Source of the DNA: Gemmatimonadales bacterium
Lineage (GTDB): Bacteria; Gemmatimonadota; Gemmatimonadetes; Gemmatimonadales; GWC2-71-9
Assembly: GCA_037189525.1 (NCBI GenBank)
Contig: JBBCJC010000005.1
Coordinates: forward strand, 608,001-672,000
Direction of reading: 5' to 3'
Length of the DNA: 64,000 bases
Below are positions 1 to 27,739 of this stretch, one piece after another (position 1 is the first letter of the stretch; every line of letters begins with the position of its first letter). The notes under the pieces were generated by a model. That model was not told where the DNA came from, made no database searches, and worked only from the letters and a program-made list of their open reading frames with translations. A program made the position numbers and the translations under genes.

Positions 1-1136
1 GAGACGCGGGTGACACCCGACGTCGCGACATCATAGACATAGATCTGCGGCCGATCGGCGTGCGGCGCGCGACGGCTGTTGAAGACCAGACGGGCTCCGT
101 CCGGGCTCCAGGTCGGAGCGCGATCCGGCCCGTCGTTCTCGGTGATCCGGCGCGACCCCGCGCCGTTGGCGCCCATCAGGCACAGCTCGTCGTTGTCGCC
201 ATCATTGTACTCACAGACGTAGGCTACCGTACCGGTGAGCTTGGAGATATCGAGCACGGTCGGATCGGTTACCTCAACCTCCAGCGGAGGCGCATCGAAG
301 TCCGAGTGATCGCCATGCAGGATGGAGAAAATGAGCTGGACCTGACCAACACTGGACGCGACGACTTCCAGGTGATCGCCGTGGACATCGATATCGATCA
401 CGCCTGCCGTCGAACCAGGTGCGAGGGCCGCGCCCAGCGTGAACTCACCCGGGAAGAACTGCAGCGTGTCGCCGTCCGCATCCAGGAAGGTGAGGTCGAG
501 CTCGACTTCCTCACCGAGCGGCAGCGCCAGTCGCCCATGCCAGTGCATGCCGGCGCCCGTGCCGTGCGTGTGGGCGACGTGTCCGCTCCCATCGCGGCGA
601 TCGAGACGAATCACGGCGATGTCGTCGGGATCTGCATGGTCGTCATGATCGTCGTGGTCGACCACCTCGACGGTCAGCGCCGGCGACTCCCACAGTGTGA
701 CGTTGCCTCGGCGCAGGACCAGGACCACGCCCACCGTTCCGACGCCGACGGCCGAGACGTCGACATGGTCGCCGTGCGGGGCCAAGGTCGCGACGCCCGA
801 CGGCGCGCCGGACGCCAGGTTCGCATGGATGGTGTATTCGCTGCCGAGCGGCACGGCCTCGCCGTCGCGGGTGATGAGCCGAACGGTGTAGGCCTTCTGA
901 TCACCCGGGTGGAGATGGATCCGGCCATGCCAGGTCATCCCGGCGCCGGAACCGTGGGTATGGACCACCTCGGTTCCCGAGGCCCGTTCGAGGACGACCG
1001 CGCTGGTGACCTCGAGCTCCTGATCCGGCCCCGTGTTGTCGCTACAGGCCGAGAGAATGAGCGGAACCGCGACGAGGCGCGCGAGCCTCCAGGCGTTCTG
1101 AACGAGTCCAATCCGATCTCGAGAATCTGTCGTCAT
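1..1136 (-). CDS. His-rich lipoprotein with two tandem ~120-aa domains followed by PD40/TolB-like repeats (runs off the left edge)
   Basis: Manual translation of the minus strand from ATG 1136 is open to position 1: MTTDSRDRIG...PLILSA|C (lipobox); HTHGSGAGMTWHGRI and HTHGTGAGMHWHGRL; DHDDHDDH; LHGDHSDFDAPPLEVEV; then DRAPTWSPDGARLVFNSRR...QIYVYD (PD40). Not in the ORF track because it has no stop inside the window. Confidence 0.85.
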   Translation of the reverse strand, partial: MTTDSRDRIGLVQNAWRLARLVAVPLILSACSDNTGPDQELEVTSAVVLERASGTEVVHTHGSGAGMTWHGRIHLHPGDQKAYTVRLITRDGEAVPLGSEYTIHANLASGAPSGVATLAPHGDHVDVSAVGVGTVGVVLVLRRGNVTLWESPALTVEVVDHDDHDDHADPDDIAVIRLDRRDGSGHVAHTHGTGAGMHWHGRLALPLGEEVELDLTFLDADGDTLQFFPGEFTLGAALAPGSTAGVIDIDVHGDHLEVVASSVGQVQLIFSILHGDHSDFDAPPLEVEVTDPTVLDISKLTGTVAYVCEYNDGDNDELCLMGANGAGSRRITENDGPDRAPTWSPDGARLVFNSRRAPHADRPQIYVYDVATSGVTRV

Positions 1137-1237
1137 GCTGGTCGTTCCGTATAGGGGGAATTGGTGAGCAGGGTGGCGAGGAACCCCTCGCCATCGGCAA
1201 CGACTGTCGTTGTCGCGCCGAAGGACATCACCTTCGA

Positions 1238-1279
1238 TATGGATATGTCGTTATCAATTGTATAGATATCTCATTATCA
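1238..1279 (-). promoter_or_regulatory. Tandem 19-bp imperfect direct repeat resembling Fur-family boxes
   Basis: Minus strand TGATAATGAGATATCTATA (1279-1261) and TGATAACGACATATCCATA (1256-1238), 16/19 identical, 23-bp period, in an AT-rich patch ~100 bp upstream of the His-rich lipoprotein. Confidence 0.55.
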
Positions 1280-1369
1280 CCTTGAGCGCAACCCGTCGAT
1301 AGTGATCGAGAAGCACACGCCTGCCCCCTTCCCTATACACGGGGGTTGCGAAGCCGTGTGCCCGGCAGT

Positions 1370-1395
1370 AACGTACAACCATATGGTTGTACGTT
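1370..1395. promoter_or_regulatory. Perfect 26-bp palindromic operator overlapping the ArsR start codon
   Basis: AACGTACAACCAT-ATGGTTGTACGTT is its own reverse complement; the ATG at 1383 lies at its centre. Confidence 0.85.
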
Positions 1396-1727
1396 CTCCC
1401 TGCTCCGAGGCCGAGCTCGATCGCGTCTTCCGCGCGCTCGCCGATACGACCCGACGCGATATCGTGGCGCGGGTCATGGTCGGCGAGCAGTCGGTCTCCA
1501 CTCTGGCGGCCCGCTACGCGATGTCGTTCGCGGCAGTCCAGAAGCATGTCGCCGTCCTCGAAGGGGCCGGCCTCGTACGCAAGTATGCCCGCGGCCGAGA
1601 ACGCCTGGTCCGCGGCAACCCCGAGCGGCTCGCCCGCGCGCGCGAGTTGCTGGCCCGGCTCGAGGATCTCTGGAAAGCGCGCTTCAGCCAGCTCGACTCC
1701 GTGCTCGCCCTGCCCACCAAGGAATGA
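1383..1727 (+). CDS. ArsR/SmtB-family winged-helix regulator
   Basis: LDRVFRALADTTRRDIV...SVSTLA...MSFAAVQKHVAVLEGAGLV...GRERLV; start moved to ATG 1383. Confidence 0.92.
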   Translation: MVVRSPCSEAELDRVFRALADTTRRDIVARVMVGEQSVSTLAARYAMSFAAVQKHVAVLEGAGLVRKYARGRERLVRGNPERLARARELLARLEDLWKARFSQLDSVLALPTKE

Positions 1728-1730
1728 GTC

Positions 1731-2699
1731 ATGCCCATTACATCCGTCACTTCCGATCCGAAGGCCCTGACCCTGACCGTCGTGGGCGACTATCCCGTTT
1801 CACTCGACCGTCTCTGGGACGCCTGGGCCGATCCTCGGCAGCTCGAGAAGTTCTGGGGTCCGGAAACCTGGCCGGCCCGCTTCACCCGTCATGACATGGC
1901 GGTGGGCGGCCGCTCCGAGTACTACATGACCGGACCGGACGGTACCCGGGCAGCCGGCTGGTGGCGCTTTCTCGCGGTCGAGCCGAAGCGCCGGATCGAA
2001 GTCGAGGACGGGTTCGCCGATGAGGCCGGCCGTCCCAACGCGACCATGCCGACCATGCGGATCGAGTTCCGTTTCGAAGCTACCGGCACCGGCTCGCGCT
2101 TCACGAGCGTCACCCGTTTCACGAGCATCGAGTCGATGGAGGAACTGGTGAAGATGGGAATGCTCGAAGGGATGCAGTCGGCGCTGGGACAGATGGATGG
2201 CGTGCTGGCCGATCTCGCTTCCTTCGCATCCAGCCGGGCGACCGAGGCCGAGATCCTGTCCGATACGACGGTGCGCATCACCCGCATCATTCGCGGTACG
2301 GTGGAGCAAGTCTGGCGTGCGCACCAGGAGCCCGAGCTGCTGCAGCGCTGGTTGCTGGGCCCCGACGGCTGGACCATGCCGGTCTGCCAGGTCGCACGGA
2401 AGGTGGGCGACACCTATCGCTACGAATGGGAAGCGGCCGACGGATCGCAGCGCTTCGGTTTCGAAGGCGAGCTGCTCGAACTGGAACCGCCCTATCGGTC
2501 CGTGACCACCGAACAGATGATCGGCACCGACGGGCCGAGCACGCGGAACGAACTCACGCTCACGCCGATGACGTCGGGTACCCTGCTTTCGATCGTGGTT
2601 ACCTATCCTAACGCCGAAGTGCGGGACGCAATTCTGGGCACCGGGATGACGGGTGGGATGGAGACGAGCTACGCCCGGCTCGAGACCGCCGTGCTCTAG
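1731..2699 (+). CDS. Tandem SRPBCC (AHSA1/START-like) domain protein
   Basis: Two repeats, LWDAWADPRQLEKFWGP and VWRAHQEPELLQRWLLGP, ending GMETSYARLE; 3 bp downstream of ArsR. Confidence 0.9.
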   Translation: MPITSVTSDPKALTLTVVGDYPVSLDRLWDAWADPRQLEKFWGPETWPARFTRHDMAVGGRSEYYMTGPDGTRAAGWWRFLAVEPKRRIEVEDGFADEAGRPNATMPTMRIEFRFEATGTGSRFTSVTRFTSIESMEELVKMGMLEGMQSALGQMDGVLADLASFASSRATEAEILSDTTVRITRIIRGTVEQVWRAHQEPELLQRWLLGPDGWTMPVCQVARKVGDTYRYEWEAADGSQRFGFEGELLELEPPYRSVTTEQMIGTDGPSTRNELTLTPMTSGTLLSIVVTYPNAEVRDAILGTGMTGGMETSYARLETAVL

Positions 2700-2711
2700 G
2701 TCGCTGGAACC

Positions 2712-2739
2712 CCCGCACGGTCGTCCCCGGCCGTGCGGG
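2712..2739 (+). terminator. GC-rich hairpin after the SRPBCC gene
   Basis: CCCGCACGG...CCGTGCGGG inverted repeat; no clear U-tract. Confidence 0.4.
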
Positions 2740-3084
2740 TATCCCCAATCTCGATTGGCCTTAATTTGCTCCACCAGCCTACCCGAAAATCAGTCAAACG
2801 CCATTTATGGCGGATTCTTTATCTGCAATTAACACCATTTTCATCCCCTCCGGTCTAAAATCGGTGTGCGTCTGACGCAACACTTTGTCTGACGCGTGCG
2901 ACAATCGGTCAGTGCCAACGGCAGAAAACCGCCCAGAATTGCGTCACTGTACGGTTTTTATTCGGCGGATTTCCGCCAAACCGGCAGTCCAACGATGGGC
3001 GCCCGCGGGCCTGCCACTTGCCTAGGCAGCGGACTCGTACGTGTGCCAGGTACCAACAAAACTCGACATCGGATCCCATTGATC

Positions 3085-6000
3085 GTGGCCATCACAGACC
3101 ATCGTCATATCGCTTTGCGTTCGCCCGCCAGCTCCGGGACAGGTGCGCAGCTGTTGCGCCGCTGGGCACAACGCGGCCTCCTCCTGGCCGGCCTCTTCGC
3201 CGGCACCGCATTCGTCGCACCTGCCGCTGCGCAGAACGTCGACCTGGTGCTCAACATCAGCGATGCGCCGGACCCGGCCATTGCCGGCGCGGTGGTGACT
3301 TACGCCGTTCGGGTGACCAACGATGCGGTCGCAACGACTGCGACCGGCGTGTCCGTCGCGGTGACCGTTCCGGCCGGATTCCTCTACGAAGGGATCAATG
3401 CACCGGGCGGGGTGGCGTGCAGCGGTATGGCGACGGGCGGCGCGGGACCTGGCGCGCTGACCTGTACGGTGCCCAACCTGGCGGCAAACGGCGAGATCGA
3501 CTTCGACCTGTTGCTGCGCACGACCCAGATGGGAACCCCCTCGGTCACGTTCGTGGTGTCCGGCGATCAGAACGATCCGGACGGCGGGAACAACACGGTC
3601 ATCGAACAGACGACGGTGACGGCCGGGTCCGACATGTACGTCACGATTGCCGGCCCCGCAACGATCGCCGCCGGCTCCCAGGCCAGCTACAGCCTGACGG
3701 TCGGCAATCTCGGCCCCAATACGACCGCAGGCGCCATCTCGGTCCAGTACCCCGTGCCGACCGGCTTCACCCTCACCGGCGGGCTACCCGGCGGATGCTC
3801 GCTGTCGGCCGGGACCATTACCTGCGCGGTCGCGGGCCCGATCGTCTCCGGCGGGAGCACCGTGGTCGGTCCGTTTACCGGGGTGATCAGCGCAGCGTCG
3901 CCGAGCACGGTGACGCACCTGGCCTCGGTGACATCTACGCAGGACCCGATCAGTGTCAACAACGCCGACGACCACAACACCGCCGTGACGGCAGGCAGTG
4001 ACCTGGCCCTGACCAAGGTCCGCAGCATCGGTGGCCCGTACCTCGTCGGGGATACCCTCGATTTCGTACTGACCCCGACCTTTACCGGCGACGTGCCGTT
4101 CGGCTTGCAGGTCGTCGACGTGGTACCCGGGAACTACACCATTCTGACCGGACAGTTCGCGGCGACGCAGGGCGCCTGGAGTTGCGGCGTCGCGGGGCAA
4201 ACCGTGACCTGTACCCGCGGGTCGGGCGGTCTCAGCGCCGGGTTCGAGGTGCCGCTTGGTCCGATCACGATTCCGGTCGTGATCGCATCGGCCGGCGTCG
4301 GCATTCAGAACACCGCGACGATTACCTCGTCATCTCCGGGTGATCCGGCTCCAGGCAACAACACGGCGACCGATGGGCCGATCAACCTAGAGACGCCGTT
4401 TGCAGACCTAACCATCCTCAAGACTGCGCCGCGCCCCGCGCTGACGGTGACGGGCGTTCCGTTCGACTTCACCATCATCGCCGGCAACCGCGGACCGAGC
4501 GGGTTCACGGGCACGCTGGTGGTGACCGACCAGGTACCGGTCGGGCTGACCGTCCAGGCCATCACGGCTCCCGGCTGGACCTGTACACCGCCCTCCCCGC
4601 TTCCGTTAGCGGGTCCGTTCGATCTGGTGTGCGAACGGGATTACCCGGCCGGCACACCGCTCCCGGCGGGAGCCGACGCGCCGGGCATCGTGGTGACGAC
4701 CTTCGCAACCCAGACCGGTGCGCTGCTGAATACCGGTGTGGTGAGCAGCCGCAACGCCGGGGTGCCCGACAACGATCTGACCAACAACACGCATTCGGTG
4801 CCAGTGACCGCCAGCCCTGGCCTGGACGCCGCCGACATCCGGATCCTCAAGAGCGTGATCGGACCGACGCCGGTTCCGGCCGGCGAGCAGCTCAGCTACC
4901 GGCTCGAGGTCGTCAACACCGGCCCGGCGACGGCCACCACCGTCTACCTGTATGACGTCTTCGATGCGCTGATCGACAATCAAGTCGGCGCCAGCCGCGG
5001 TTACGTGGGTGAGACGATCACGCCCGGCATCGTGGCGCCCGGTACCATCGCCTGCAGTACCGCGGTCGAGGGCGCCCTCAGCCGGGCGCTGACCTGCGAG
5101 ATCCCGACCCTGCCGGTTTGTACGGCAGGCGTGGACTGCCCGGTCTTCGAGGTCATGGTTCGTCCCTCGATTGCCACGACCGGAAGCCGGACCAACACGG
5201 CTGCCGGCGCCTCCTTCACCACCGCCGATCCGGATGTGAGCAACAACACGGCAACGGCAACGAGCCAGGTGGATGCGCGCGCCGACATCACCATCACCAA
5301 GGTCGGCACTCCTACGCCGGTGCCCGCCGGCCAGGGACTCGAATACGTCCTGACCGCGGTCAACAACGGTCCGAGTTCGGCCGAGAACGTCATCGTCGTC
5401 GATTCCCTGCCGCTGGGCGTCCGCTTCATCTCGGCGACGGCGTCGACCGGCAGCTGCGCAACGACTCCGGGCGTCGGGACGACGACGAGCGCCGGCAATC
5501 GAGTGATTTCCTGCTCGCTCGGCACGCTCGCGTGGGACACCCAGGAAACGATCACGATCCGGGTCCGGCCCACCTACCCGACCTACAACTCGACGATCGG
5601 CAACGTCGCGACGGTTACCACGACCACGACGGAGCCGGCGGCGCCAGGCGCCACCAACAACAGGGCCACGTTCGACGCGGCCGTGGGCGCGCCGCAGGTC
5701 GACCTGCTGGTGAACAAAGTCGACCTGCTCGACCCGCTGACGGTCGGCGACTCGACCGCCTATCGCATCATCGTCACCAATAACGGTCCCTCGGACGCCG
5801 AGAACGTCGTCATTACCGATCAGATGCCGGCGGGAGGACTGAGCTATCAGCGGCATCTGATCACGTCGGGTGGCAGCTGCGGCACCCTGCCGGCGGTAGG
5901 CGCGGTCGGCGGCCAGGCCGTATGCCAGATTCCCCGCCTCGAAGCCGGACGGAGCGATACCCTCCATGTCGTGATGCTCGGCGTGACGAGCGGAATCTGG

Positions 6001-9000
6001 AACAACCAGGTCACCGTGGCGTCCGACGAAACGACCGGCGGTTTCGAAACCGCGCCGGCCAACAATGCAACCGACGAGAATACGACCGTCCGGAGCCGAG
6101 TCGACCTGCAGTTGGTGAGCAAGACGGCCTCGAGCGATTCGGTCGGGGTCCGGGTGCCGTTTACCTGGGACCTGGTGGTGCGGAACAATGTCGGCGCCGG
6201 ATTGGCCGAAGCCGATTCGGTCCAGGTATCCGACGTTCTGCCGGCCAACATGGAGTTGACCGGAGCCCCGTCGGTGGTGAGTGTCACCGGCGGCAGCATC
6301 ACCAACGGCGCCTGTTCCGGCGTAGCCGGTGAGACCAGCTTCGTCTGCCAGCTGGGCACGGTCGACAACGGCGCCGTGGTGACGATCCGGGTTCCGGTTC
6401 GTGCCCTGGCGGTTCCGGCGGCGCCCGGCATCATGACCAACAGCGCCACGATCAGTACGACCCTGTCGCTCGACATCGTGCCCGGCAACAACGGCGGGTC
6501 GGGCGACGTCACGATCGTCGGCAGCGCCGTCTCGGGCAGCGTCTTCCGCGACTTCGACGCCGACGGCGTCATCGACGGGACGGACACCGGGATCGATGCC
6601 ATCACCATGACCCTGACCGGCACCGCCTTCGACGCCACGCCGATCTCGGTCACCACGACCACCGACGCCACCGGGGCCTACGCCTTCAGCGGGCTTCCCG
6701 CCGGGACGTATACGATTACCCGAGGGACCGTCTCCGAAGCGCACCTCTCGGCAGGTACGCAGATCGTCGGCACTCGCGGCGGCAATGCCGCGACCCTGGG
6801 ATCGATCTCCGCCATTGCCCTCGGCGACGGGGTTACCGGGACCGGCTACCTGTTCCCCTTCGTTCCCGCGGCGCGAATCGGTGTGGCCAAGCAGCTGATG
6901 GCGGCGCCCACCGCCGGCGCCGACGGCAGCTTCACCGCGACATTCCAGGTCCGGGTCCAGAACTACGGGCTGGAAAACCTGACCGGCGTCACGGTGCGCG
7001 ATCCGCTGGCTGGCGCGGCCCCCAACTTCGGTAGCTTCGTGACAGGCGGGGCGGCCGCGGTATTGACCGCGGGCCAATACACTGTCGAGTCGGCCCCGAC
7101 CCTGGTCGGCGCCTGCGTCGGCGGCACGCCGAACGCCGGATTCACCGGCGACGCGGCTCCAGCGCTGCTGACGCTTGCCTCGCTTGCCGCGAACGGCGGA
7201 GCTTGTACGGTCAGCTTTGCCGTACGGTTCCTGCCAAGCTCGCCCTTCCCGGCCGGCGGGTACGCCAACCAGGCCAACGCCGACGGCACGGGTGAACTCT
7301 CCGGGCAGACCCCGAGCGATCAGTCGCACGACGGGGTCGATCCTGATCCGGACGGCAACGGCGTACCAACCGATAACAATGATCCGACCCCGGTGCCGGT
7401 CTCGCCGGTTGCCGACGTCACCACCGATGTCACCCTCCCGGCCTCGGCCAACGCGGCCGATACGGTGCTCGCAACCGTGCTCTTCCGGAATGCGGGTCCC
7501 TTCCCGGCCGACGGGGCGACCTACACTCTGACGATGACGACGGGTCTCACCGGCGTCAGCTTTGCGAACCTGCCGGCCGGCGCCACCGCGAGCTACGACG
7601 CGACGACCGGAACGGTCACCTTGACCGGAATGCCGACGACCATTCCCGCCGGCACGATCGTATCGGGGAACGGTACCGATCCCATCTCGATCACCTACGT
7701 CCAGCCGGGAAGCGGTACGAGTACCGTCTCGAGCGGCATCGGCACGACCACGAGCCAGGGCGCCAACGTCCTGCCTGACACCGACACCGCCACGGTGTCC
7801 GGTGGTCTGGTGGCCGACGTGACGACGACGGTGGACTTCCCCGCAACGGTCAATGCCGGAGGAACGGTGACCGGCACGGTCGTCTTCACCAACGTGGGGC
7901 CGTCGACCGCGTCCAACGTGACCTATACGCTCCAGCTCGAGCCGGGCCTGACCGGTGTCGTCATAGGGAACCTCCCGGGCGGCGCCAGCGCGAGCTACGA
8001 CCCGGGCACCGGTGTGGTCACGCTCACCGGCATGCCTGCGTCGTTGACGCCGGGACAGATCGCCTCGGGCAATGGCACGACCGGTATTACGGTCAGCTAC
8101 GTCCAGCCGGCCACCGGCACCAGTACGGTGGCGAGCGAGATTACCACGACGACTCCGGAACCCGCTGGCCACGCACCGAATCAGGACAGCGCAACGATCA
8201 GCGGCGTTCCGATTGCCGATGTGACGACCGCGATCAGCTTCCCGCCGGGCGGGAATGTGGTCAACGCCGGCGATACGGTGACGGCCATCGTGAGCTTCTC
8301 AAACAACGGACCGTCCGATGCCGCCGGTGTGACCTACCGGATTGCGCTGGAGCCGGGCCTCGATCCGGCGCAGGTGAGCTTCGACAACCTGCCGGCCGGT
8401 GTGACCGCCAGCTACGGTGCCGGAACCGGCGACGTGACCTTTACCGGGATGCCGGCCACGCTGACACCGGGGCAAATTGCCTCGGGCAACGGCACCAGCG
8501 GCATCGTGGTGCGTTACATCCAGACCGTCACGGCCGACAGCTGGGTCCGGAGCTACATCACGACCACGACCGACCAGGGTGCCAACCTGGCGCCGGACAT
8601 GGCCCAGGCGCCGACCAACGGCCTGGCCATCGCGGACGTGACGACGTCGCTCAGCTTCCCGCCGAACGCGAACGCGGGCGAGACGGTCTCCGGTACGGTC
8701 CGCTTCACCAACCTCGGTCCGTCACCTGCGCAGAACGTCCTGTACGGCCTGCAGCTTTCGACCGGCTTGACCGGCGTCAGCTTCGGCAATCTGCCGGCGG
8801 GCGCCAGCGCCAGCTACGACCCCACGACGGGAACCGTCACCTTCACCGGCATGCCTGGTACGCTGAACCCGGGCCAGATCGCGTCCGGCGACGGCACCAC
8901 GTTCATCACCGTGGAGTATGTCCAGCCGGCCAGCGCCACCAGCGCGATCACCAGCACGATCGCGACCTCCACCGACGAAGGCGCCAACATCGGGCCGAAC

Positions 9001-12000
9001 CTGGCCACGGCCACGGTGGTCGGTAGTCCGATTGCCGACGTGACGACAAGCGTCGCCTTCCCGGCTACCGCCAACCCGGGGCAGCCGGTCAACGGAACGG
9101 TCATCTTCACCAACGCCGGTCCGTCGCCGGCCGCCAACGTCGGCTACACGCTGACGCTGACGCCCGGACTCACCGGCGTCGTGATCGGCAACCTGCCGGC
9201 CGGCGCAACCGCAAGCTACGACGCCACCACCGGAGTCGTGACGCTGACCGGGATGCCGGCCACGCTCATTCCCGGCCAGATCGCATCCGGCAACGGGACC
9301 AGCGGCATCACGGTCCAGTATACGCAGCCGGCGAGCGGGGTGAGCCAGATCAATACGGGCATCACCACCACGACCGATCAGGGCGCCAATCTGCTGCCTG
9401 ATACTGCGCAGGCGACGGTCGAGGGTCAGCTCGCCGATGTGACCACGTCGATCGTCCTGACTCCGACGGCCAACGCCGGCGATCCGGTTGTCGCCACGGT
9501 GCGCTTCCAGAACCTGGGACCGTCCATCGCACGTAGCGTGACCTATCGGATCACGCTGGTACCCGGTCTCACGGATGTCACGTTCGCCAACCTGGTCCCG
9601 GGCGCGACGGCCGTCTACAACGCCGTCACGGGCGAGGTGACCTTCACCGGCATGCCCCCGGCACTGACGCCGGGACAGATCGCCTCGGGCGACGGTGTGA
9701 ACGGGATCGAGGTCCGCTATACGCAGCCGGCGTCGGGCACGAGCCGAGTGACGAGCCACATCCGCACCGGAACCGATCAGGGCGCGAATGTGGCGCCCGA
9801 CGATGCGGAGGCCGTCGTCAGCGGCTCGCTGGTTGCCGACCTGGTGACGACCAAGACCGCGCCGACCGGCCCTGTTACCGCCGGCGCCGACGTGACCTAT
9901 CTGGTTCGGGTCGAGAACCGCGGGCCGTCCGACGTGCCCGCCGGCAGCCGGCTGACGGACACCCCGTCCGGTCTGACGCTGACGGCCGTGGCCTGCAGCG
10001 GCGCTACCGGTAACCTGTGCTCGACGGCGCCGACGGCCGCGCAGCTGACCGCGGGCGCTGTCCTGCCCGCGTTGCCCGCTACCCGGTTCTACGAGCTGTC
10101 GGTCACGGCACGGGTGCTCGGCAATGTCATGACGGCGACCAATACGGCCGCGGTCGTCGGACCGCCCACCGTGGTCGATCCGACGCCAGGCAATGACACT
10201 TCGACCGTCACGCGTCCGGTAACGCACGCGCCGGCGATCGGGATTGCGAAGCAACTGACGCACCGGGAAACGCTGGCCGGCGGCGGGCTCCGCGTCCGGT
10301 TCAGCATGCTGGTGCGCAACTATGGCACCGAACCCCTCGACGGCGTCCGGGTGACCGATGCGCTGGCAGGGTCTGCCGGCGGGACGTTCGGTACGCTGCA
10401 ACCTTCGGGCGTGCTCGCGGCCGGCACCTATCGGGTCGTCTCGGTCACCGCCAACGGGCTACTCCCCAACCCGGCCTTCGACGGCGACGGCAACCTCCTG
10501 CTGGCGAGCGGATCGCTCCCGGTCGGAGCGAGCGGCACGATCGAACTGACCGTGGACGTCGTCCCGCAGGCGGCCGATCGGGCCATTCTGAACGTGGCGC
10601 GAGCCGTGGGCACCGGTGCGACGAGCGGCACTCCGACGGAGGACGTCTCGCAGGACGGCACCGACCCTGATCCGGACGGGAATGGCGATCCGACCGACAA
10701 CGACGATCCGACTCCGGTTCCGGTTCCCGCCATTGCGGTCGTCAAATCGCTGGTGACGGTCGAGAACGCCGGGAACGGCCGTTACGACGCAACCTTCGCG
10801 ATCGTGGTGCGGAATGCCGGGACGGGACCGCTCACCATGGTTCAGGTCACGGATCGCCTGACGGCGTTCGGCAGCTACACCACCGAGGCGATGCCCGGCC
10901 CCGGCCAGTACACCGTGGTCGGCGCTCCGGTCATCACCAATGCGTTGAACGGCGCGTCGCTGACCGCGCAGCCGGCGGGCGTCTTTACCGGCGCCGATGC
11001 GAACATTGGCTTGCTGATTCCGGCCAGCAGTGTGCTGCCGCAAGGTCCGCCGAACGCGTCGAGCGCGGAAGTGCGCTTTACCGTGCGCTTCTTCCCGACC
11101 AACACCGGACCGTTCCGGAACGCGGCAGCGGCCGAGGCTGAAGGCCCGGGCGGCATCCCGGTTACCGGCGAAACCGAAACGCCGACGGAGGTACCGATCG
11201 AGCATCAGAGCATCGGTCTCGCCAAGTCTGCAGGCACTCCGGTCCAGACCGGCGACGGGCGCTTCCTGATCCCCTACCGGATCACGGTTCGCAACATGAG
11301 CAGCACCGTGACGGCGACGAACGTCCAGGTTCGTGACGACCTCACGGCCACATTCCCGAACGCCGTCTCGATCGTGATCCAGAGCGCCGCGCGCGTTACC
11401 GCGTGCACCGGGACGACCCTGGCGGTGGCCTCACCGGCGTTCGACGGAACCACTCAGACCGCCCTCCTCGCGGGCAATCAGTCGCTCGAGCCCGGAACGC
11501 AGTGCGTCATCGAGTTCTCGGTCGAAGTCGACTACGGCGTGGTCGCGCTGCCTGCGCAGCCGACGATCAATCGCGCCGAAGGCTCGACCTCCGGCACGCC
11601 CGGCGGACCCCCGATCGTGACGGATGGTTCGCAGAACGGCGACGATCCGGATCCGGACGGCGACGGCGATCCGACCAACAATGACGAGGGGACGCCCGTC
11701 ACGCTGACGCCGGACGAGCCGGCTCCGGTGGGCGCGTTCCAGATCGTCAAGACAAGTTCGCTCGTCAACGTCGCGGTCGGCCAGCTGGTGCCGTACACCA
11801 TCACGGTCACCAACATCTCGTCGGTGAACGTGCCGGATGCGCAGATTCGGGATCTGATCCCGGCCGGCTTCCGGTATCGGACCGGCACGGGCTCGGTCGA
11901 CGGCGTTCCGCGTGAACCGACCGTGAATGGACGGGCCCTGATCTGGGATAACCTGGCCTTCCGGCCCGGCCAGACGCGGGTGATCCGCCTGGTCCTGATG

Positions 12001-12726
12001 GTTGGCGCCGGAGTACAGACCGGTGAATACACCAACATCGCGCAGGTGTTCGATCCGGCCCCGCCGCCCACGAATCCGCTATCGGAAGTGGCCATGGCGA
12101 CGGTGCGAGTCGTGCCTGATCCGGTATTCGAGTGCTCGGACATCATCGGCAAGGTGTTCGACGACCGGAACGGCAACGGCGTCCAGGACCCGGGTGAACC
12201 CGGTCTGGCAAGCATCCGCGTCGCCACCGTGCGCGGCTGGCTGGTGACGACCGATGCCGACGGCCGGTACCACATCGCGTGCGCGGCATATCCCGACCGG
12301 GATCGCGGCAGCAACTTCGTCGTCAAGCTCGATGATGCGAGCCTGCCCACCGGCTACGCGACGACCAGCGAGAATCCGCGGGCCGTGCGCGTCACTCAGG
12401 GTAAGGTGACCGAGGTGAACTTCGGTGTCGCCCTGCCCCGAACGCTCCGGGTGGAAATGCGGGACGAAGCGTTCGAAGGCCGGACCACCGAGCTCGCCAC
12501 CGACTGGCGCGCATCGCTCGGTACGCTGCAGGACGATATCCGCGGCCGCGCGGCGGTGATCGAGTTGATCTACCGCGCCGGAACGGACGATCCACAACTG
12601 GCCCGCGCCCGACTCAAGGCGGTCGCGGACTACATACGAACACAGTGGCGACAGGAGCCGCTCAGGCATGTGGTGCGCATCGAAGAGGTCCTGGAGATGA
12701 CGAGCGGTCGGGAGGGCGGACGATGA
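3085..12726 (+). CDS. Giant (~3,200 aa) secreted DUF11/Ig-like repeat surface protein with SdrD_B-like domains and a degenerate OmpA-like C-terminal domain
   Basis: ORF open from 2896; true start uncertain (TTG 3079, GTG 3085 or TTG 3115) ahead of signal peptide RGLLLAGLFAGTAFVAPAAA|Q. Many DL-x3-K...Y-x-L-x-V-x-N-x-GP...NN repeats; SdrD_B-like GSVFRDFDADG and GKVFDDRNGNGVQD; Thr/Gly/Val/Ala/Pro-rich. Confidence 0.9.
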   Translation: MAITDHRHIALRSPASSGTGAQLLRRWAQRGLLLAGLFAGTAFVAPAAAQNVDLVLNISDAPDPAIAGAVVTYAVRVTNDAVATTATGVSVAVTVPAGFLYEGINAPGGVACSGMATGGAGPGALTCTVPNLAANGEIDFDLLLRTTQMGTPSVTFVVSGDQNDPDGGNNTVIEQTTVTAGSDMYVTIAGPATIAAGSQASYSLTVGNLGPNTTAGAISVQYPVPTGFTLTGGLPGGCSLSAGTITCAVAGPIVSGGSTVVGPFTGVISAASPSTVTHLASVTSTQDPISVNNADDHNTAVTAGSDLALTKVRSIGGPYLVGDTLDFVLTPTFTGDVPFGLQVVDVVPGNYTILTGQFAATQGAWSCGVAGQTVTCTRGSGGLSAGFEVPLGPITIPVVIASAGVGIQNTATITSSSPGDPAPGNNTATDGPINLETPFADLTILKTAPRPALTVTGVPFDFTIIAGNRGPSGFTGTLVVTDQVPVGLTVQAITAPGWTCTPPSPLPLAGPFDLVCERDYPAGTPLPAGADAPGIVVTTFATQTGALLNTGVVSSRNAGVPDNDLTNNTHSVPVTASPGLDAADIRILKSVIGPTPVPAGEQLSYRLEVVNTGPATATTVYLYDVFDALIDNQVGASRGYVGETITPGIVAPGTIACSTAVEGALSRALTCEIPTLPVCTAGVDCPVFEVMVRPSIATTGSRTNTAAGASFTTADPDVSNNTATATSQVDARADITITKVGTPTPVPAGQGLEYVLTAVNNGPSSAENVIVVDSLPLGVRFISATASTGSCATTPGVGTTTSAGNRVISCSLGTLAWDTQETITIRVRPTYPTYNSTIGNVATVTTTTTEPAAPGATNNRATFDAAVGAPQVDLLVNKVDLLDPLTVGDSTAYRIIVTNNGPSDAENVVITDQMPAGGLSYQRHLITSGGSCGTLPAVGAVGGQAVCQIPRLEAGRSDTLHVVMLGVTSGIWNNQVTVASDETTGGFETAPANNATDENTTVRSRVDLQLVSKTASSDSVGVRVPFTWDLVVRNNVGAGLAEADSVQVSDVLPANMELTGAPSVVSVTGGSITNGACSGVAGETSFVCQLGTVDNGAVVTIRVPVRALAVPAAPGIMTNSATISTTLSLDIVPGNNGGSGDVTIVGSAVSGSVFRDFDADGVIDGTDTGIDAITMTLTGTAFDATPISVTTTTDATGAYAFSGLPAGTYTITRGTVSEAHLSAGTQIVGTRGGNAATLGSISAIALGDGVTGTGYLFPFVPAARIGVAKQLMAAPTAGADGSFTATFQVRVQNYGLENLTGVTVRDPLAGAAPNFGSFVTGGAAAVLTAGQYTVESAPTLVGACVGGTPNAGFTGDAAPALLTLASLAANGGACTVSFAVRFLPSSPFPAGGYANQANADGTGELSGQTPSDQSHDGVDPDPDGNGVPTDNNDPTPVPVSPVADVTTDVTLPASANAADTVLATVLFRNAGPFPADGATYTLTMTTGLTGVSFANLPAGATASYDATTGTVTLTGMPTTIPAGTIVSGNGTDPISITYVQPGSGTSTVSSGIGTTTSQGANVLPDTDTATVSGGLVADVTTTVDFPATVNAGGTVTGTVVFTNVGPSTASNVTYTLQLEPGLTGVVIGNLPGGASASYDPGTGVVTLTGMPASLTPGQIASGNGTTGITVSYVQPATGTSTVASEITTTTPEPAGHAPNQDSATISGVPIADVTTAISFPPGGNVVNAGDTVTAIVSFSNNGPSDAAGVTYRIALEPGLDPAQVSFDNLPAGVTASYGAGTGDVTFTGMPATLTPGQIASGNGTSGIVVRYIQTVTADSWVRSYITTTTDQGANLAPDMAQAPTNGLAIADVTTSLSFPPNANAGETVSGTVRFTNLGPSPAQNVLYGLQLSTGLTGVSFGNLPAGASASYDPTTGTVTFTGMPGTLNPGQIASGDGTTFITVEYVQPASATSAITSTIATSTDEGANIGPNLATATVVGSPIADVTTSVAFPATANPGQPVNGTVIFTNAGPSPAANVGYTLTLTPGLTGVVIGNLPAGATASYDATTGVVTLTGMPATLIPGQIASGNGTSGITVQYTQPASGVSQINTGITTTTDQGANLLPDTAQATVEGQLADVTTSIVLTPTANAGDPVVATVRFQNLGPSIARSVTYRITLVPGLTDVTFANLVPGATAVYNAVTGEVTFTGMPPALTPGQIASGDGVNGIEVRYTQPASGTSRVTSHIRTGTDQGANVAPDDAEAVVSGSLVADLVTTKTAPTGPVTAGADVTYLVRVENRGPSDVPAGSRLTDTPSGLTLTAVACSGATGNLCSTAPTAAQLTAGAVLPALPATRFYELSVTARVLGNVMTATNTAAVVGPPTVVDPTPGNDTSTVTRPVTHAPAIGIAKQLTHRETLAGGGLRVRFSMLVRNYGTEPLDGVRVTDALAGSAGGTFGTLQPSGVLAAGTYRVVSVTANGLLPNPAFDGDGNLLLASGSLPVGASGTIELTVDVVPQAADRAILNVARAVGTGATSGTPTEDVSQDGTDPDPDGNGDPTDNDDPTPVPVPAIAVVKSLVTVENAGNGRYDATFAIVVRNAGTGPLTMVQVTDRLTAFGSYTTEAMPGPGQYTVVGAPVITNALNGASLTAQPAGVFTGADANIGLLIPASSVLPQGPPNASSAEVRFTVRFFPTNTGPFRNAAAAEAEGPGGIPVTGETETPTEVPIEHQSIGLAKSAGTPVQTGDGRFLIPYRITVRNMSSTVTATNVQVRDDLTATFPNAVSIVIQSAARVTACTGTTLAVASPAFDGTTQTALLAGNQSLEPGTQCVIEFSVEVDYGVVALPAQPTINRAEGSTSGTPGGPPIVTDGSQNGDDPDPDGDGDPTNNDEGTPVTLTPDEPAPVGAFQIVKTSSLVNVAVGQLVPYTITVTNISSVNVPDAQIRDLIPAGFRYRTGTGSVDGVPREPTVNGRALIWDNLAFRPGQTRVIRLVLMVGAGVQTGEYTNIAQVFDPAPPPTNPLSEVAMATVRVVPDPVFECSDIIGKVFDDRNGNGVQDPGEPGLASIRVATVRGWLVTTDADGRYHIACAAYPDRDRGSNFVVKLDDASLPTGYATTSENPRAVRVTQGKVTEVNFGVALPRTLRVEMRDEAFEGRTTELATDWRASLGTLQDDIRGRAAVIELIYRAGTDDPQLARARLKAVADYIRTQWRQEPLRHVVRIEEVLEMTSGREGGR
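7411..9834 (+). repeat. Six tandem ~134-codon intragenic repeats
   Basis: Units begin with ADVTT at 7411, 7813, 8215, 8632, 9034 and 9433 (periods 402, 402, 417, 402, 399, 402 bp); shared consensus GLTGVxFxNLPAGAxASYDxxTGxVTxTGMPxTLxPGQIASGNG. Confidence 0.92.
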
Positions 12727-15700
12727 ACCGCCATTGGGATGTGACCGTTTGGTCAGCACTCGTCCTGGGCCTTGGCACGGCGACGATCGCGAGTCCGCTC
12801 GCGGGTCAGGACCGGAAACCGTGTCCGCCAGCCGAACGGCCGGCGGGAACCCCGCTGCCGTTCCGGGTCACCGTCGACGGCGAGCCTCGGGTTCGCAGCG
12901 ACGTGATGCACGACGAGGACCGGACGCGCTGCGAAGATTCCGCCCTCGAACGGGCGAATATTCAGGTACGTGCCGATCTCCGGGAACGTACCCCGGTGCT
13001 CAACCTGACCGCTCCGCGGTCTGCGCTGCGCAATCAACCGGTGATGTTCACCGGCTATAGCAACTACGCCGCCTGGATCGCTCGATCCGAGCTGCGCATC
13101 CTCCCGGCGGAGGGCTCGACCGGCGCGCCGCCCCTCGCGGTGGCAGCATCGACCGATCCGAACACCCTGCAGTTCCGCTGGACGGTGCAGTTGCCGGAGA
13201 GCATCGAGCAGGTCCGTTATGTCCTTCGCGTCTACGATCGGGAAGGACGGTTCGACGAAACGGCGCCCAAGACGCTCGCCATCGTCGACCGGATCCGGAC
13301 CGAGAGCGACCGGGAGTCGGATGAACGCGAATCGCTGGTGGGTTACGGCGAGAACCACCGGTCGGTCATCAACATTCCGGTGGTTGGCGCCGCGATCACG
13401 GTCAACGGCGATCAGTTCGACGCGAAGGCGCGGGTAACCGTGTTCGGACGGACCGTGTCGGTGGCCGAGAACGGTCGCTTTGCCGCTCGCGAGATCATGC
13501 CGGTCGGTACGCATACCGTGACCATCATGGTGGAACAGGACGGCGCCCGTCACGAACTGACCCGGACGGTCGAGTTGCCGCAACGCGACTGGTTCCATCT
13601 GGCGGTGGCCGACTTCACGCTGGGTAAGAACTCGGTCACGGGTCCGGCGGCACTGGTCACCGGTCAGGATACCCGGCGCTATCGCGGGCAGCAGTATCTC
13701 GACGGCCGCCTGGGCTTCTACCTCAAGGGCGATCTCGGGTCCGAGACCGTCCTGACCGCCAGCGCGGACACCCGCGAGCAACCGATCGAGGACCTGTTCT
13801 CGAACTTCGGCGCGCGGGATCCGATGGCCCTGCTCCGCCGGCTCGACGTGAACTACTCCTATCCGGTCTACGGCGACGATGGGGTCCTGATCGACGATGC
13901 GCCGACCCAGGGCAAGTTCCACGTCCGCCTGGAACGGCACGATTCGCATCTGATGTGGGGCAGCTTTCAGACGCCGGTGACGGGCACCGATCTGGTCCGG
14001 TTCAATCGCGGCCTCTATGGCGGTGAGCTGCAGCTGCGCGCGCTGGGGTCGACCCAGTTCGGCGAGCGGCGCACGCGCGCCAACGTCTTCGCTGCCGATC
14101 CGGGCACGGCCGGCGCCCGCGACGAGTTCCGCGCCACCGGCGGTTCCCTCTACTACCTGCGCAATCAGGATGTCCTGCTCGGCTCCGAACAGGTCATGGT
14201 CGAGGTGCGCGATCGCGAATCGGGGCTGGTCCTCGAATCGACGACGCTGGTGCCGACGCAGGACTACGAGCTCAATGCCTTGCAGGGCCGCGTCGTGCTT
14301 CGCGCGCCGCTGTCCTCGATCGCGGAATCGCATGGCCTGGTGCGCACAGGCGCCCTGAGCGGCAACCCGGTGTACCTGGTGGTCGCGTACGAGCACACCC
14401 CGATGGGTATCCGGCTCGACAACTTCACCACCGGCGGGCGCGTCGCCCAATGGGTCGGCGATCACGTTCAGCTCGGCCTGACCGGCTACAAACAGGATGG
14501 TCTCGATCTCGGCCAGGAGCTCCTGGCCGGCGACGTGACTCTTCGCTACCGCCCCGGTACGTTCGTCACGGTGGAACGGGCCCGCTCGGAAGGACGCGGA
14601 ACCCAGGCCATGCGGTCGATCGACGGCGGCTTTGCCTTCACCCCCATCGCCAGCTCGGCAACCACGGCCTCGAAAGCCAACGCCAGCCGGGTCGAGGTCG
14701 GGATGGATCTGGCCGAGTTGAGCGGTGGCACCTCGCGCGGCCATGTCGGCCTCTACTGGCAGGATCGCGGCAACGGATTCTCCGCCCCGGGCCAACTCTC
14801 GACCGAGGCGACTCGGCAGGGCGGCAGCCAGCTGAGCATTCCGCTCAGCGACCAGGTGGCGGTCAGCGCCAAGGCCGATCTGCGTGAAGGCGATCTGTCC
14901 GGCAGCGCCCGCTCCCTGGAGTTCGGGACCGATCTCGGCCTCTCGCGCAACGTTCTGCTCCAGGGTGGCGTCCGCCACGAGCGCCGGGAAACCGGTCTGC
15001 TCGGCGGCAGCAGTGCGCTGCTCTCGGAAGTCGGCCAGCGCACCGACCTGATTGGCGTGCTGGGGTATCAGCCGGTCGACTCGCTTGGTGCGCCGCGCGG
15101 GTACAGCGTCTACGGGTTGCTCCAGGGCACCGTGAGTCGCGACGACAGCCGCAGCACCAACGATCGCTACGGCGTCGGTGGCAGGTTGCGGTTGTCGGAT
15201 CGGGTTGCCCTCTCGACGGAGGTGACCGATGGTACCGGCGGGATGGGCGGCAAGGTCGAGTCCGAGTTCCAGGTCTCCGACCGGACCAGCCTCTACCTCA
15301 ACTACCTGATGGACACCGACCGCGCCGACCAGGGATATCGCGGCCGGACCGGCAACCTGAGCGCCGGCGGGCGAGTCCGGTACTCCGAGGCCGTCAGCCT
15401 CTTTGCGGAGCGGCGGCAGCAATCGTCCGAGGCCGGCCCGTCCGGGCTGATCCATGCCTTCGGATTGGACCTGGCACCGTCGGACCGCTGGAGCTGGGGC
15501 CTCAAGCTGGAAGGTGGCACCATTGCCGATCCGAACTACGGCGATGTGGATCGGAAGGCGGCCTCCATCTTTGCCGGATACGCGACCGAGCGGCTCCGCT
15601 GGGGTGGCGCACTCGAGTACCGGACGGAAAAGACCGATCAGGTGGCAAAGCGGGTATCCTGGTTGAGCCGGAACAACGTCGGCGTCCAGCTGTCGGACGG

Positions 15701-16295
15701 CTGGCGAGCGCTCGGCCGCGCCAACGTGGCCGTGAGCACCGGCCCGGCCGGCACCAGCGGGCTCGATGCCGACTACACCGAACTCGTGGCCGGCCTGGCG
15801 TACCGCCCGGTGCGCAACAACCGGGTCAACGCGCTGTTCCGGTATACCTATCTCTACGATCTGACCAGCCCGGACCAGCTCGGCCCGCGGCTCGAGCTCA
15901 ACCCGTATGCGCAGCGCAGTCACGTGCTTTCGGTCGACGCCATCGCGCGAGCGGCCCGCTGGATCTCGATCGGCGGCAAAGTCGGACACCGGCGCGGCGA
16001 GATCCGCGATCGCTCCTCCGACATTGCTCCGTGGATGTCCAGCTCTGCCTGGCTGGCCATTGCACGTGGCGACCTGCATGTCGTGAAGCAGTGGGACGTC
16101 GTGGGCGAACTTCGCCGGCTGTCCGTGACCGAAGCGAACGATGCGCGGTCGGGTGTACTGCTCGGCGTCTACCGGCAGGTGGGCACGAACCTGCGGGTTG
16201 GGCTTGGCTACAACTTCACCGATTACTCGGACGATCTGACCGATCTGCGTTATCGGAGCCGCGGCTGGTTCCTGAACCTGCTCGGCGTGCTATAA
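12723..16295 (+). CDS. Large predicted outer-membrane beta-barrel protein (~1,190 aa), partner of the giant repeat protein
   Basis: ATGA overlap with the upstream stop; signal peptide; C-terminal half rich in alternating amphipathic strands, ending GLGYNFTDYSDDLTDLRYRSRGWFLNLLGVL. Confidence 0.85.
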   Translation: MNRHWDVTVWSALVLGLGTATIASPLAGQDRKPCPPAERPAGTPLPFRVTVDGEPRVRSDVMHDEDRTRCEDSALERANIQVRADLRERTPVLNLTAPRSALRNQPVMFTGYSNYAAWIARSELRILPAEGSTGAPPLAVAASTDPNTLQFRWTVQLPESIEQVRYVLRVYDREGRFDETAPKTLAIVDRIRTESDRESDERESLVGYGENHRSVINIPVVGAAITVNGDQFDAKARVTVFGRTVSVAENGRFAAREIMPVGTHTVTIMVEQDGARHELTRTVELPQRDWFHLAVADFTLGKNSVTGPAALVTGQDTRRYRGQQYLDGRLGFYLKGDLGSETVLTASADTREQPIEDLFSNFGARDPMALLRRLDVNYSYPVYGDDGVLIDDAPTQGKFHVRLERHDSHLMWGSFQTPVTGTDLVRFNRGLYGGELQLRALGSTQFGERRTRANVFAADPGTAGARDEFRATGGSLYYLRNQDVLLGSEQVMVEVRDRESGLVLESTTLVPTQDYELNALQGRVVLRAPLSSIAESHGLVRTGALSGNPVYLVVAYEHTPMGIRLDNFTTGGRVAQWVGDHVQLGLTGYKQDGLDLGQELLAGDVTLRYRPGTFVTVERARSEGRGTQAMRSIDGGFAFTPIASSATTASKANASRVEVGMDLAELSGGTSRGHVGLYWQDRGNGFSAPGQLSTEATRQGGSQLSIPLSDQVAVSAKADLREGDLSGSARSLEFGTDLGLSRNVLLQGGVRHERRETGLLGGSSALLSEVGQRTDLIGVLGYQPVDSLGAPRGYSVYGLLQGTVSRDDSRSTNDRYGVGGRLRLSDRVALSTEVTDGTGGMGGKVESEFQVSDRTSLYLNYLMDTDRADQGYRGRTGNLSAGGRVRYSEAVSLFAERRQQSSEAGPSGLIHAFGLDLAPSDRWSWGLKLEGGTIADPNYGDVDRKAASIFAGYATERLRWGGALEYRTEKTDQVAKRVSWLSRNNVGVQLSDGWRALGRANVAVSTGPAGTSGLDADYTELVAGLAYRPVRNNRVNALFRYTYLYDLTSPDQLGPRLELNPYAQRSHVLSVDAIARAARWISIGGKVGHRRGEIRDRSSDIAPWMSSSAWLAIARGDLHVVKQWDVVGELRRLSVTEANDARSGVLLGVYRQVGTNLRVGLGYNFTDYSDDLTDLRYRSRGWFLNLLGVL

Positions 16296-26311: not shown

Positions 26312-26617
26312 CCCCCACCTCGACCGCTGGAGCGGCGGGGAGGCAAATGGGCCCCAATCGCTGGGCCATCCCTCCCCGTCGTGGCGCTGGCCATGGTCAC
26401 CGTCGGGCTCGTTGCGACAGCCGGCCCAGCCCGGCGAGGCCTCCGAGTGGAGCCTCCCCGCGGCCCTCCAATCCGACGAATGGTCATTCCAGGCCCACTT
26501 TGGACCATCCCCGCGCAGGAAACACAGCAAATCGGTAGACTTCTGCGTAGTAAAGGCGGACTCGGCGACTTCTGGCCGGGCCCGCCGTTCAACCTTTTGC
26601 CAGATCCCTGCGACTTG

Positions 26618-27736
26618 ATGAATCCGACCTACCGCTCTGCCCGATATAGTTCCTTCCTTTGGCTGGTCGTGGCGTCGAGCCTCGTCGGCATGGGCTGCCG
26701 CAAAGCGCCCCCGCCCCGATCCGCGGCCGTCCCCGTCACCACCGCCCGGGTGGAGCAGCGGACCGTGCCCTTCGAAGTCACCGCGCCCGGTACCGTAGAG
26801 CCGATCAAGGCGGTTGCCGTCACGGCCCAGGTCAGCGGCCTGATCACGGCCGTCCATTTTCAGGAAGGGGCCCTGGTCGAGGCAGGCCAGATTCTGTTTG
26901 AAATCGATCCCCGGCCGTACCGCAACGCATTGCAGCAGGCCGAAGCCACCCTGGCCCGCGATCTGGTCCAGCTGGAAAATGCCCGTCGTCAGGTGGAGCG
27001 GTATCAGGGTCTGGCGCAAAGCGAGTATATCACGTCCGAGCAGTACGAGTCCCTCAAGGCCACCGCCGCCGGCCTGGCCGCCACGGTCCAGTCCGACTCG
27101 GCCACGGTCGACAACGCCCGGCTCAACCTCGAGTACACGACCATCCGGGCCCCGATTTCAGGCCGTACCGGGGGACTCCTGGTCAAGCAGGGCAACCAGG
27201 TCAGGGCCCAGTCGGCCGAGCCGATGGTGCTGGTCAACCAGACCCAGCCGATCATGATCCGGTTTTCGGTCCCGGCCAGCTATCTCCAGACCATCCGGGC
27301 CCAGCGCGGCGAGCGGCTTCGGATCCGGGCGGCCACCACGACCGACACCACGACGCTGCTCGGCGCGCTGTCGTTCGTTGATAACGCCGTCGACACCACC
27401 ACCGGCGCGATCCTGCTCAAGGGCCAGTTCTCCAATGCCAACGGCCTGCTCTGGCCCGGGCAGTTCGTCACCACCACGCTCGAGCTCTACCAGGAAAAAG
27501 ACGCCATCCTGGTGCCGAACGCCGCGATCGTCACGGCGGATGCCGGCAGCTATGTCTTCGTGATCGACCAGGAGCGGAAAGCGGCAATGCGCAACGTCGT
27601 GTTGGGGCGCACGGTCGGGGAGTACCAAATCGTCACCGTTGGACTCGAACCCGGCGAACGGGTGGTTACCGACGGCCAGCTCCGGCTCACCCCCGGCGCA
27701 ACCGTCGACATCAAGAATCTCGATCCCGGGGCCTGA
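26618..27736 (+). CDS. RND efflux periplasmic adaptor (MdtA-like MFP), lipoprotein
   Basis: LVGMGC lipobox; QVSGLITAVHFQEG; TTIRAPISGRTG; VDNAVDTTTG; GLEPGERVVTDGQ. Confidence 0.93.
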   Translation: MNPTYRSARYSSFLWLVVASSLVGMGCRKAPPPRSAAVPVTTARVEQRTVPFEVTAPGTVEPIKAVAVTAQVSGLITAVHFQEGALVEAGQILFEIDPRPYRNALQQAEATLARDLVQLENARRQVERYQGLAQSEYITSEQYESLKATAAGLAATVQSDSATVDNARLNLEYTTIRAPISGRTGGLLVKQGNQVRAQSAEPMVLVNQTQPIMIRFSVPASYLQTIRAQRGERLRIRAATTTDTTTLLGALSFVDNAVDTTTGAILLKGQFSNANGLLWPGQFVTTTLELYQEKDAILVPNAAIVTADAGSYVFVIDQERKAAMRNVVLGRTVGEYQIVTVGLEPGERVVTDGQLRLTPGATVDIKNLDPGA

Positions 27737-27739
27737 CCG

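Follow-up and report, generated by a model that had tools for sequence, protein, structure and literature searches.

The window analyzed here, a stretch of 64,000 nucleotides from a Gemmatimonadales bacterium (assembly GCA_037189525.1, contig JBBCJC010000005.1), carries two adjoining genes, one for a giant DUF11/CLIPPER repeat protein (ORF1, the cargo) and one for a giant outer-membrane barrel protein (ORF2). On balance, we lean toward reading them as one case of a widespread, unnamed secretion system whose outer-membrane barrels (40 or 38 strands) are of the largest type known and which would export folded, isopeptide-locked immunoglobulin (Ig)-repeat adhesins via a C-terminal DUF11+SdrD_B module, encoded in one chain or in two genes; its 38-strand form may assemble fibers from small DUF11 subunits. 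The barrel itself probably acts as a dedicated export-and-anchor pore for its own giant Ig-repeat adhesin, which it would hold through the C-terminal module.

ORF1 (positions 3085 to 12726; this and all features of both genes described below lie on the plus strand) was delimited from its open reading frame (ORF) and family scans and encodes 3,213 amino acids (aa) making up a putative fibrillar adhesin. We called its start at the GTG at position 3085, although this codon is uncertain because the same frame is open already from 2896. The protein begins with a likely Sec signal peptide (aa 1 to 49, 3085 to 3231; this peptide and that of ORF2 were judged by eye from the N termini) and continues as a stalk (3232 to 11736) of ca. 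20 Ig-like repeats (DUF11, DUF7507, and one SdrD_B), which differs between loci. Pfam gave 16 DUF11, 2 SdrD_B, and 3 DUF7507 stretches (with overlaps possible), which fits this number of repeats. ORF2 (12723 to 16295; 1,190 aa, defined from the ORF, homologs, and AlphaFold2) starts with an ATG that overlaps the TGA of ORF1, forming ATGA, and has a GGAG-like site upstream. The preliminary description of this DNA, which had pictured a Sec-signal protein of ca. 3,200 aa with roughly 20 Ig-like repeats overlapping in ATGA a signal-peptide protein of ca. 1,190 aa, was thus accurate on both genes. Many of the ORF1 repeats contain cysteine pairs. In the available text of PMC12617251, DUF11 domains are described as stalks of fibrillar adhesins, with isopeptide bonds that confer resistance to heat and proteases, and the available part of a preprint (bioRxiv 2025.08.19.671072) reports that DUF11 domains build a polar filament in Litorilinea. 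Of the features of CLIPPER/DUF11 adhesins, ORF1 has the signal peptide (by eye) and the tandem DUF11 stalk, with the Lys-Asp-Asn triad checked in the last DUF11 domain only. Asp/Gly/Pro-rich loops of the DPDPDGNG type recur in several of the repeats (ca. 4357 to 4500, 7300 to 7400, 10700 to 10800, and 11640 to 11730) and are possibly calcium-binding sites.

The repeat protein and barrel genes showed a near-obligate pairing across phyla that was tight in both directions. On the cargo side, there were 558 confirmed metagenome loci, of which we took the best 80 and found distinct modules in 59; the barrel was the next gene in 56 of these 59 and was fused to the cargo in 1, the sequence ended too early in 2, and none lacked a barrel. 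The partner repeat ORFs in the metagenome loci ranged from ca. 500 to 3,900 aa, some of them incomplete. Starting from the barrel, we obtained matches in 46 genomes of a Pseudomonadota-centered sample of 401, and 20 loci were taken (19 from among the strongest full-length matches and one weaker); the module gene was directly upstream in 18, fused in 1, and in the last the repeat gene was downstream and incomplete. A single-protein search gave three loci, among which L002 begins at the barrel gene, while a different contig of its genome bears the module. Independent occurrence of the two genes, which would have spoken against a dedicated pair, was not seen in any locus that was readable, and fusions were frequent. 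Among the best 150 of 2,979 barrel family representatives (clustered at 50%, E ≤ 0.001), there were 35 single-chain fusions with the module ahead of the barrel, reaching 7,402 aa, and 31 of the 36 representatives of >1,650 aa among these 150 were module-barrel fusions with the same domain order as the two genes. Their architecture runs from signal through repeats, module, OmpA(-like) domain, and Ig domain to barrel. For instance, P0187 has 47% identity over the barrel protein and 9 DUF11 stretches, while P0221 carries OmpA domains between module and barrel, where other fusions have OmpA-like tails too. In fusions such as P0045 and P0209, only 7 to 42 residues separate the module from the N-terminal domain of the barrel protein. 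Within the phylum of the window, 12 of 251 genomes matched, mostly with fused giants, including nine fused ORFs of 1,900 to 5,200 aa. Among named relatives, a Gemmatimonadaceae metagenome-assembled genome with the same pair comes closest (71% identity), and split pairs are also present in records of Sinorhizobium meliloti (in strain T073 on pSymA), Vibrio campbellii, and Ralstonia. Two loci depart from the usual layout. The order is reversed in L108 (11982 to 17501), with the barrel first and an incomplete repeat protein downstream, while in L099 (6244 to 12243) a single 40-strand barrel has three Ig-repeat genes in a row upstream, the full module being on the last of them only and the other two ending in a DUF11-like domain; L099 is possibly a multicargo or chain-assembly locus.

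The C-terminal region of ORF1 comprises a conserved last DUF11 domain (11737 to 12105; from profile, alignment, and predicted fold), a conserved SdrD_B-like domain (12106 to 12435; from alignment and predicted fold), and a degenerate OmpA-like domain (12436 to 12723; HHalign, 77%, E 2e-5) without the GHxD and NxxLS segments. The predicted fold of the last 329 residues (predicted local distance difference test [pLDDT] of 92) shows DUF11, SdrD_B-like, and alpha/beta domains, and this region resembles SdrD, UafA, Gram-positive pilins, and the CLIPPER structure 9IFR (TMt of 0.67 for 9IFR). Lys, Asp, and Asn at module positions 5, 39, and 100 are at least 90% conserved and coincide with the CLIPPER isopeptide triad given in the available text of PMC12617251. 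Module identity between loci was 40 to 50%, whereas the stalks differ. Three other loci (L110 to L112) lack the OmpA-like tail, their partners stopping directly after SdrD_B, so the tail is dispensable; in some other partners it is a canonical OmpA. Therefore, DUF11+SdrD_B is the constant element in the 40-strand subfamily, and it is our candidate for the signal by which the barrel would recognize its cargo. Mutual information between module and barrel chains (125 pairs; effective number of sequences [Neff], 103) gave a top z of 7.3 versus 5.9 for two shuffled pairings, with the top barrel columns being those that dominate phylogenetic noise within the barrel. Used alone as the query, the SdrD_B domain matched 83 of 251 genomes (E 1e-4 to 1e-11), but these are generic SdrD_B domains and uninformative on co-occurrence.

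ORF2 had no NCBIfam family and no sequence match in the PDB, and its only Pfam match was a weak one to the Ig-like Glucodextran_B (aa 223 to 285). This match falls in Ig-like N-terminal domains (aa 64 to 285, 12912 to 13577; Pfam and AlphaFold2) that are predicted to be periplasmic, and barrel homologs have, in addition, one to three OmpA domains ahead of this part. Close homologs P0006 to P0010 (64% identity) carry an additional N-terminal region of 300 to 500 aa, without a Pfam match in P0006. From aa 290 to 1189 (13590 to 16289), AlphaFold2, DSSP, and coevolution point to a 40-stranded beta-barrel. The AlphaFold2 model, built from 109 homologs (pLDDT of 80, predicted template modeling score of 0.76), has 40 consecutive strands, with loops mostly alternating long and short; the count was taken from the DSSP secondary structure of the model, without coordinates. 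Strands 3 and 4 are joined by a highly conserved loop of 48 residues with low pLDDT (aa 350 to 397, 13770 to 13913), a candidate plug or cargo-binding loop, and strands 7 and 8 are separated by an inserted beta domain of 109 residues (aa 460 to 568, 14100 to 14426; model, coevolution, and profile), on the predicted extracellular side. Coevolution was measured by mean-field direct coupling analysis (DCA) of 357 barrel sequences (Neff of 260), which replaced a noisy plain mutual information. The best coevolving partner was a sequence neighbor for 38 of the 40 strands, strands 7 and 8 coevolved across the insert (z of 16), and 34 of 39 neighbor pairs lay above the 95th percentile of nonneighbors. 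Geometry gives a C-alpha diameter of 71 to 74 Å for 40 strands versus 64 Å for 36. No good match to the model was found among solved structures with Foldseek and VIA-align. The former gave only poor matches to smaller barrels, and in the latter, SprA had the longest alignment (Z of 16.0, 625 residues, root mean square deviation of 13.0 Å), tied with maltoporin (Z of 16.4, 284 residues). Porins of 12 to 18 strands aligned across model residues ca. 290 to 1190, as expected if the barrel ends meet at a seam.

A distant subfamily of 27 barrels could be aligned along the full barrel length (HHalign, 100%, 782 columns); strands 18 and 19, one hairpin, are missing from it, so that it has 38 strands. 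Among 16 further, weaker barrel loci, 15 were DUF11-barrel fusions of 1,660 to 2,260 aa and 1 was a split pair, and all 15 fusion loci had one to five small DUF11-like genes alongside (150 to 440 aa), many with signal-like N termini. In these operons (L118 to L133, e.g., L121 at 208 to 11956 and L120 at 3658 to 12581), small DUF11 genes of ca. 160 aa and 330 to 440 aa stand ahead of the fusion, and they possibly encode an isopeptide pilus of Gram-negative bacteria.

The 40-strand barrel family has very likely been predicted in print already, as an orphan. The available portions of Solan et al. (2021, PNAS; PMC8346858) describe a “large single barrel” superfamily in which family 002 has 40 strands (1,194 proteins, with a closing signal) and family 003 has 38 strands (849 proteins), with the annotation “6H3I fragment-6R2Q.” Sister families of 40 and 38 strands were found here as well, and the homolog listed there as “6H3I_A fragment” agrees with our match to a SprA fragment; since the agreement extends to the two strand numbers as well as to this fragment, our barrels very likely correspond to families 002 and 003. 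The same portions of text and supplement give no partner, gene context, or function, and “DUF11” had 0 matches in them. In the part available, a 2026 preprint (10.64898/2026.03.07.710327) still names SprA as the barrel of greatest known size. We found no account of the repeat protein-barrel pair in the literature searched, which lacked most subscription journals; apparently new, in that they were not found in print, are the near-obligate pairing with DUF11 adhesins, the existence of fusions, the conservation of the C-terminal module, and the operons of pilin-like type.

In the mechanism that we propose, Sec would take both proteins across the inner membrane, and BAM, the machinery that assembles beta-barrels, would insert the barrel. 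The repeats would fold in the periplasm and be locked there by disulfides and CLIPPER isopeptide bonds. Given that isopeptide bonds resist heat and protease and that cysteine pairs are many, the domains are likely folded before export, for which a wide pore would be needed. The DUF11+SdrD_B module would dock at or in the barrel, and the stalk would leave by way of the lumen, with the OmpA-like C-terminal part staying behind in the periplasm as a stopper or cell wall tether; in fused forms, the same steps would take place inside one chain, in an autotransporter-like manner. OmpA domains and the barrel N terminus are periplasmic. Since the fusions place OmpA(-like) and Ig domains between the repeats and the barrel, a stalk at the surface must cross the membrane through the barrel, and we infer that export and anchoring are both carried out by it.

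Several points weigh against this proposal. Two secretins are encoded in the genome, which therefore has another export route, and no motor or energizer gene is linked to the pair. The surveyed loci were chosen by similarity to the query and are biased to close relatives, being neither random nor independent. The SdrD-module profile at E < 1e-8 matched only 2 of the 15 38-strand-type fusions and missed 13, so that in these the module is divergent or not universal. Closure between strands 1 and 40 was not seen by mean-field DCA (rank 292 of 740 nonadjacent pairs, with 5 of 39 true neighbors weak too), and the closed barrel is drawn indirectly from the model and from the published contact map of a family that is only inferred to be the same.

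The alternative that survives best, which we nevertheless regard as unlikely, is that the barrel is an anchor only, with the adhesin secreted otherwise (e.g., by type II secretion) and its C-terminal module bound from outside, as PorP/SprF-like barrels do for type B cargo of type IX secretion (T9SS). The two secretins and the lack of a linked energizer suit it, and the one-to-one pairing fits a dedicated anchor equally well, but in fusions such as P0221, with periplasmic OmpA domains between module and barrel, a stalk displayed at the surface has to traverse the membrane inside the one chain, and a 40-strand lumen far exceeds what an anchor needs. It is improbable that the repeat protein is instead a periplasmic strut tying the barrel to the cell wall, with the barrel serving envelope stability or large-solute uptake. 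Although both partners have OmpA domains, large structural barrels such as SlpA (the best Foldseek match) exist, and some members are labeled TonB-dependent receptor in databases, ca. 20 tandem Ig domains would span ca. 80 to 100 nm in a periplasm of 15 to 25 nm (an estimate from general knowledge), partners carry adhesin-type Pfam domains, including Calx-beta and LapA, and the model has no TonB plug or N-terminal plug domain. We give as little credence to an usher-like platform that builds a pilus from separate DUF11 subunits, with the giant protein as a prefused fiber, which is in any case more a variant of the export pore than an alternative to it. The small DUF11-like genes beside all 15 38-strand-type fusion loci read and the pilin-like fold of the module agree with such a platform; however, small subunits are missing from the locus in the window, no gene for a chaperone was identified, and the barrel is not FimD-like (TM-score of 0.12 of the query [TMq]). 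Finally, we consider it very improbable that ORF2 forms several small barrels or an open sheet, since weak PF13505 (8-strand barrel) matches on many homologs, the missing 1-40 closure signal, and the existence of multibarrel chains (available text of PMC8346858) are countered by the lack of any sub-barrel closure signal for 8, 10, 12, 14, 16, or 20 strands (scores of 0.4 to 1.4; null 95th percentile, 1.44), the short linkers between strands, the absence of an 8-strand barrel among the fold matches listed, and the closing signal of the published 40-strand family (PMC8346858).

Each of the two genes occurs once in the genome, which is 98% complete, and GC content gave no clear signal of horizontal transfer (0.65 to 0.69 at the locus versus 0.63 to 0.69 elsewhere). 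The nine flanking ORFs scanned were all unrelated: a PD40 protein, SRPBCC, DUF892, an S8 peptidase, AbgT, an amidohydrolase, one without a family, and an efflux pair of the resistance-nodulation-division (RND) type (HlyD_D23 adaptor and AcrB family; 26381 to 30868, plus strand), which lies ca. 10 kb downstream and is not a type I secretion system (T1SS). On the minus strand at 60 to 1136, cut by the window start, there is a lipoprotein-like protein in which Ig-like segments rich in His/Asp recur and PD40 repeats are present, possibly a metal binder. SprA_N was not found in the window's genome nor in 21 congeners, though it matched in 14 of 41 relatives. The SprA_N-bearing proteins, of 2,070 to 2,600 aa (G069:C7, G677:C28, G673:C36, G040:C2, and G036:C5; L139 to L143), all come from outside the window's genus, which suggests that T9SS-like translocons are patchily spread in the phylum.

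If the proposed export pore is real, it would provide a function for the largest predicted beta-barrels, explain how isopeptide-stabilized adhesins arrive at the surface of Gram-negative bacteria, and add a secretion route beyond the types compared below. With 2,979 representatives, and matches in 46 of 401 genomes of one phylum sample, the family is a large one, hidden under the labels OmpA, MotB, and TonB-dependent receptor. A pore for folded domains that takes only one or two genes could be put to use for surface display or as a wide nanopore.

In order to place the pair among known systems, we compared it with their defining features. Neither ORF had an RTX, two-partner secretion, POTRA, autotransporter, sortase-anchor, or T9SS C-terminal domain family (Pfam at E ≤ 0.1; NCBIfam), and no ABC transporter, membrane fusion protein (MFP), or TolC gene is linked, the nearest MFP being that of the AcrB-type RND pair. 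These absences had been listed in the preliminary description and were confirmed. Giant adhesins of T1SS, such as LapA, Bap, and SiiE, have giant Ig-repeat stalks and are held in the outer-membrane pore by a periplasmic stopper. The stalk is likewise giant here, but the N terminus of the cargo is of the Sec type and the stopper would be C terminal. For TonB-dependent receptors, there was no receptor or Plug match, and the 40 predicted strands contrast with 22 and an N-terminal plug; with this strand number and Foldseek TMq values of at most 0.21, the barrel models neither as such a receptor nor as TpsB, the identities that would have spoken against a private translocon. No usher family matched, and the strand count differs from 24. 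T11SS (DUF560/Slam) consists of tetratricopeptide repeat domains and a 14-strand DUF560 barrel; there was no DUF560 match, and the strand count differs. The earlier statement that such pairs carry the labels DUF11 and OmpA/MotB-like proved correct, as many barrels have N-terminal OmpA domains. A DUF11 stalk in a Gram-negative bacterium, anchored at its C terminus by an OmpA-like part as here, is known from Acinetobacter silvestris B9T28_05395 (PMC12617251; PDB 9IFR), where the available text does not describe export of the adhesin and contains neither “barrel” nor “secretion.”

The likeness to the T9SS translocon SprA lies in the very large monomeric barrel, the best full-length structural alignment, a short motif in the inserted domain, and recognition of the cargo by its C terminus, which for our pair is inferred. 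The idea of a shared motif predated the test of the insert profile. Matches to this profile were obtained for 5 of 5 proteins bearing SprA_N, with per-sequence E values of 8e-8 to 2e-6, compared to 0 of 55 controls (shuffled or reversed), and they cover the short motif only; against the PDB, SprA ranked second with an E of 0.38, not significant library-wide, and the Atlas lead for the insert was likewise SprA_N (0.79, 31% of members). On the other hand, SprA/Sov has 36 strands and about 2,400 residues (available text of PMC10994853), compared to 40 strands and 900 residues here, and the barrel of our pair is private to a single cargo, with which it often forms one chain. ORF2 had no SprA_N or TIGR04189 match (Pfam, NCBIfam), no whole-barrel sequence homology to SprA was found, ORF1 had no Por_Secre_tail, CHU_C, or TIGR04131 match, and no PorV, PorKLMN motor/hub, or plug was present among the nine flanking ORFs, to which the search for PorV and PorKLMN was confined.

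The type V systems (T5SS) share with the fused forms the Sec signal, N-terminal passenger, and C-terminal barrel and with the split forms the adjoining cargo and barrel genes. They differ in having 12 or 16 strands rather than 40, and here the passenger is an isopeptide-type Ig chain and the conserved element is C terminal. For type Va, there was no Autotransporter match in Pfam, and the 40 predicted strands contrast with a 12-strand C-terminal barrel; for type Vb, there was no POTRA, ShlB, or hemagglutinin activity match, and ORF2 has all-beta Ig-like N-terminal domains, versus the 16-strand TpsB of the Omp85 family. Judged by the features tested, the pair belongs to none of T1SS, T5SS, T9SS, T11SS, and chaperone-usher, in agreement with the two-partner arrangement outside the type I, V, and IX definitions that was first suspected. 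In our best reading, its mode of action would come closest to that of a type V system, but with a pore the size of SprA.

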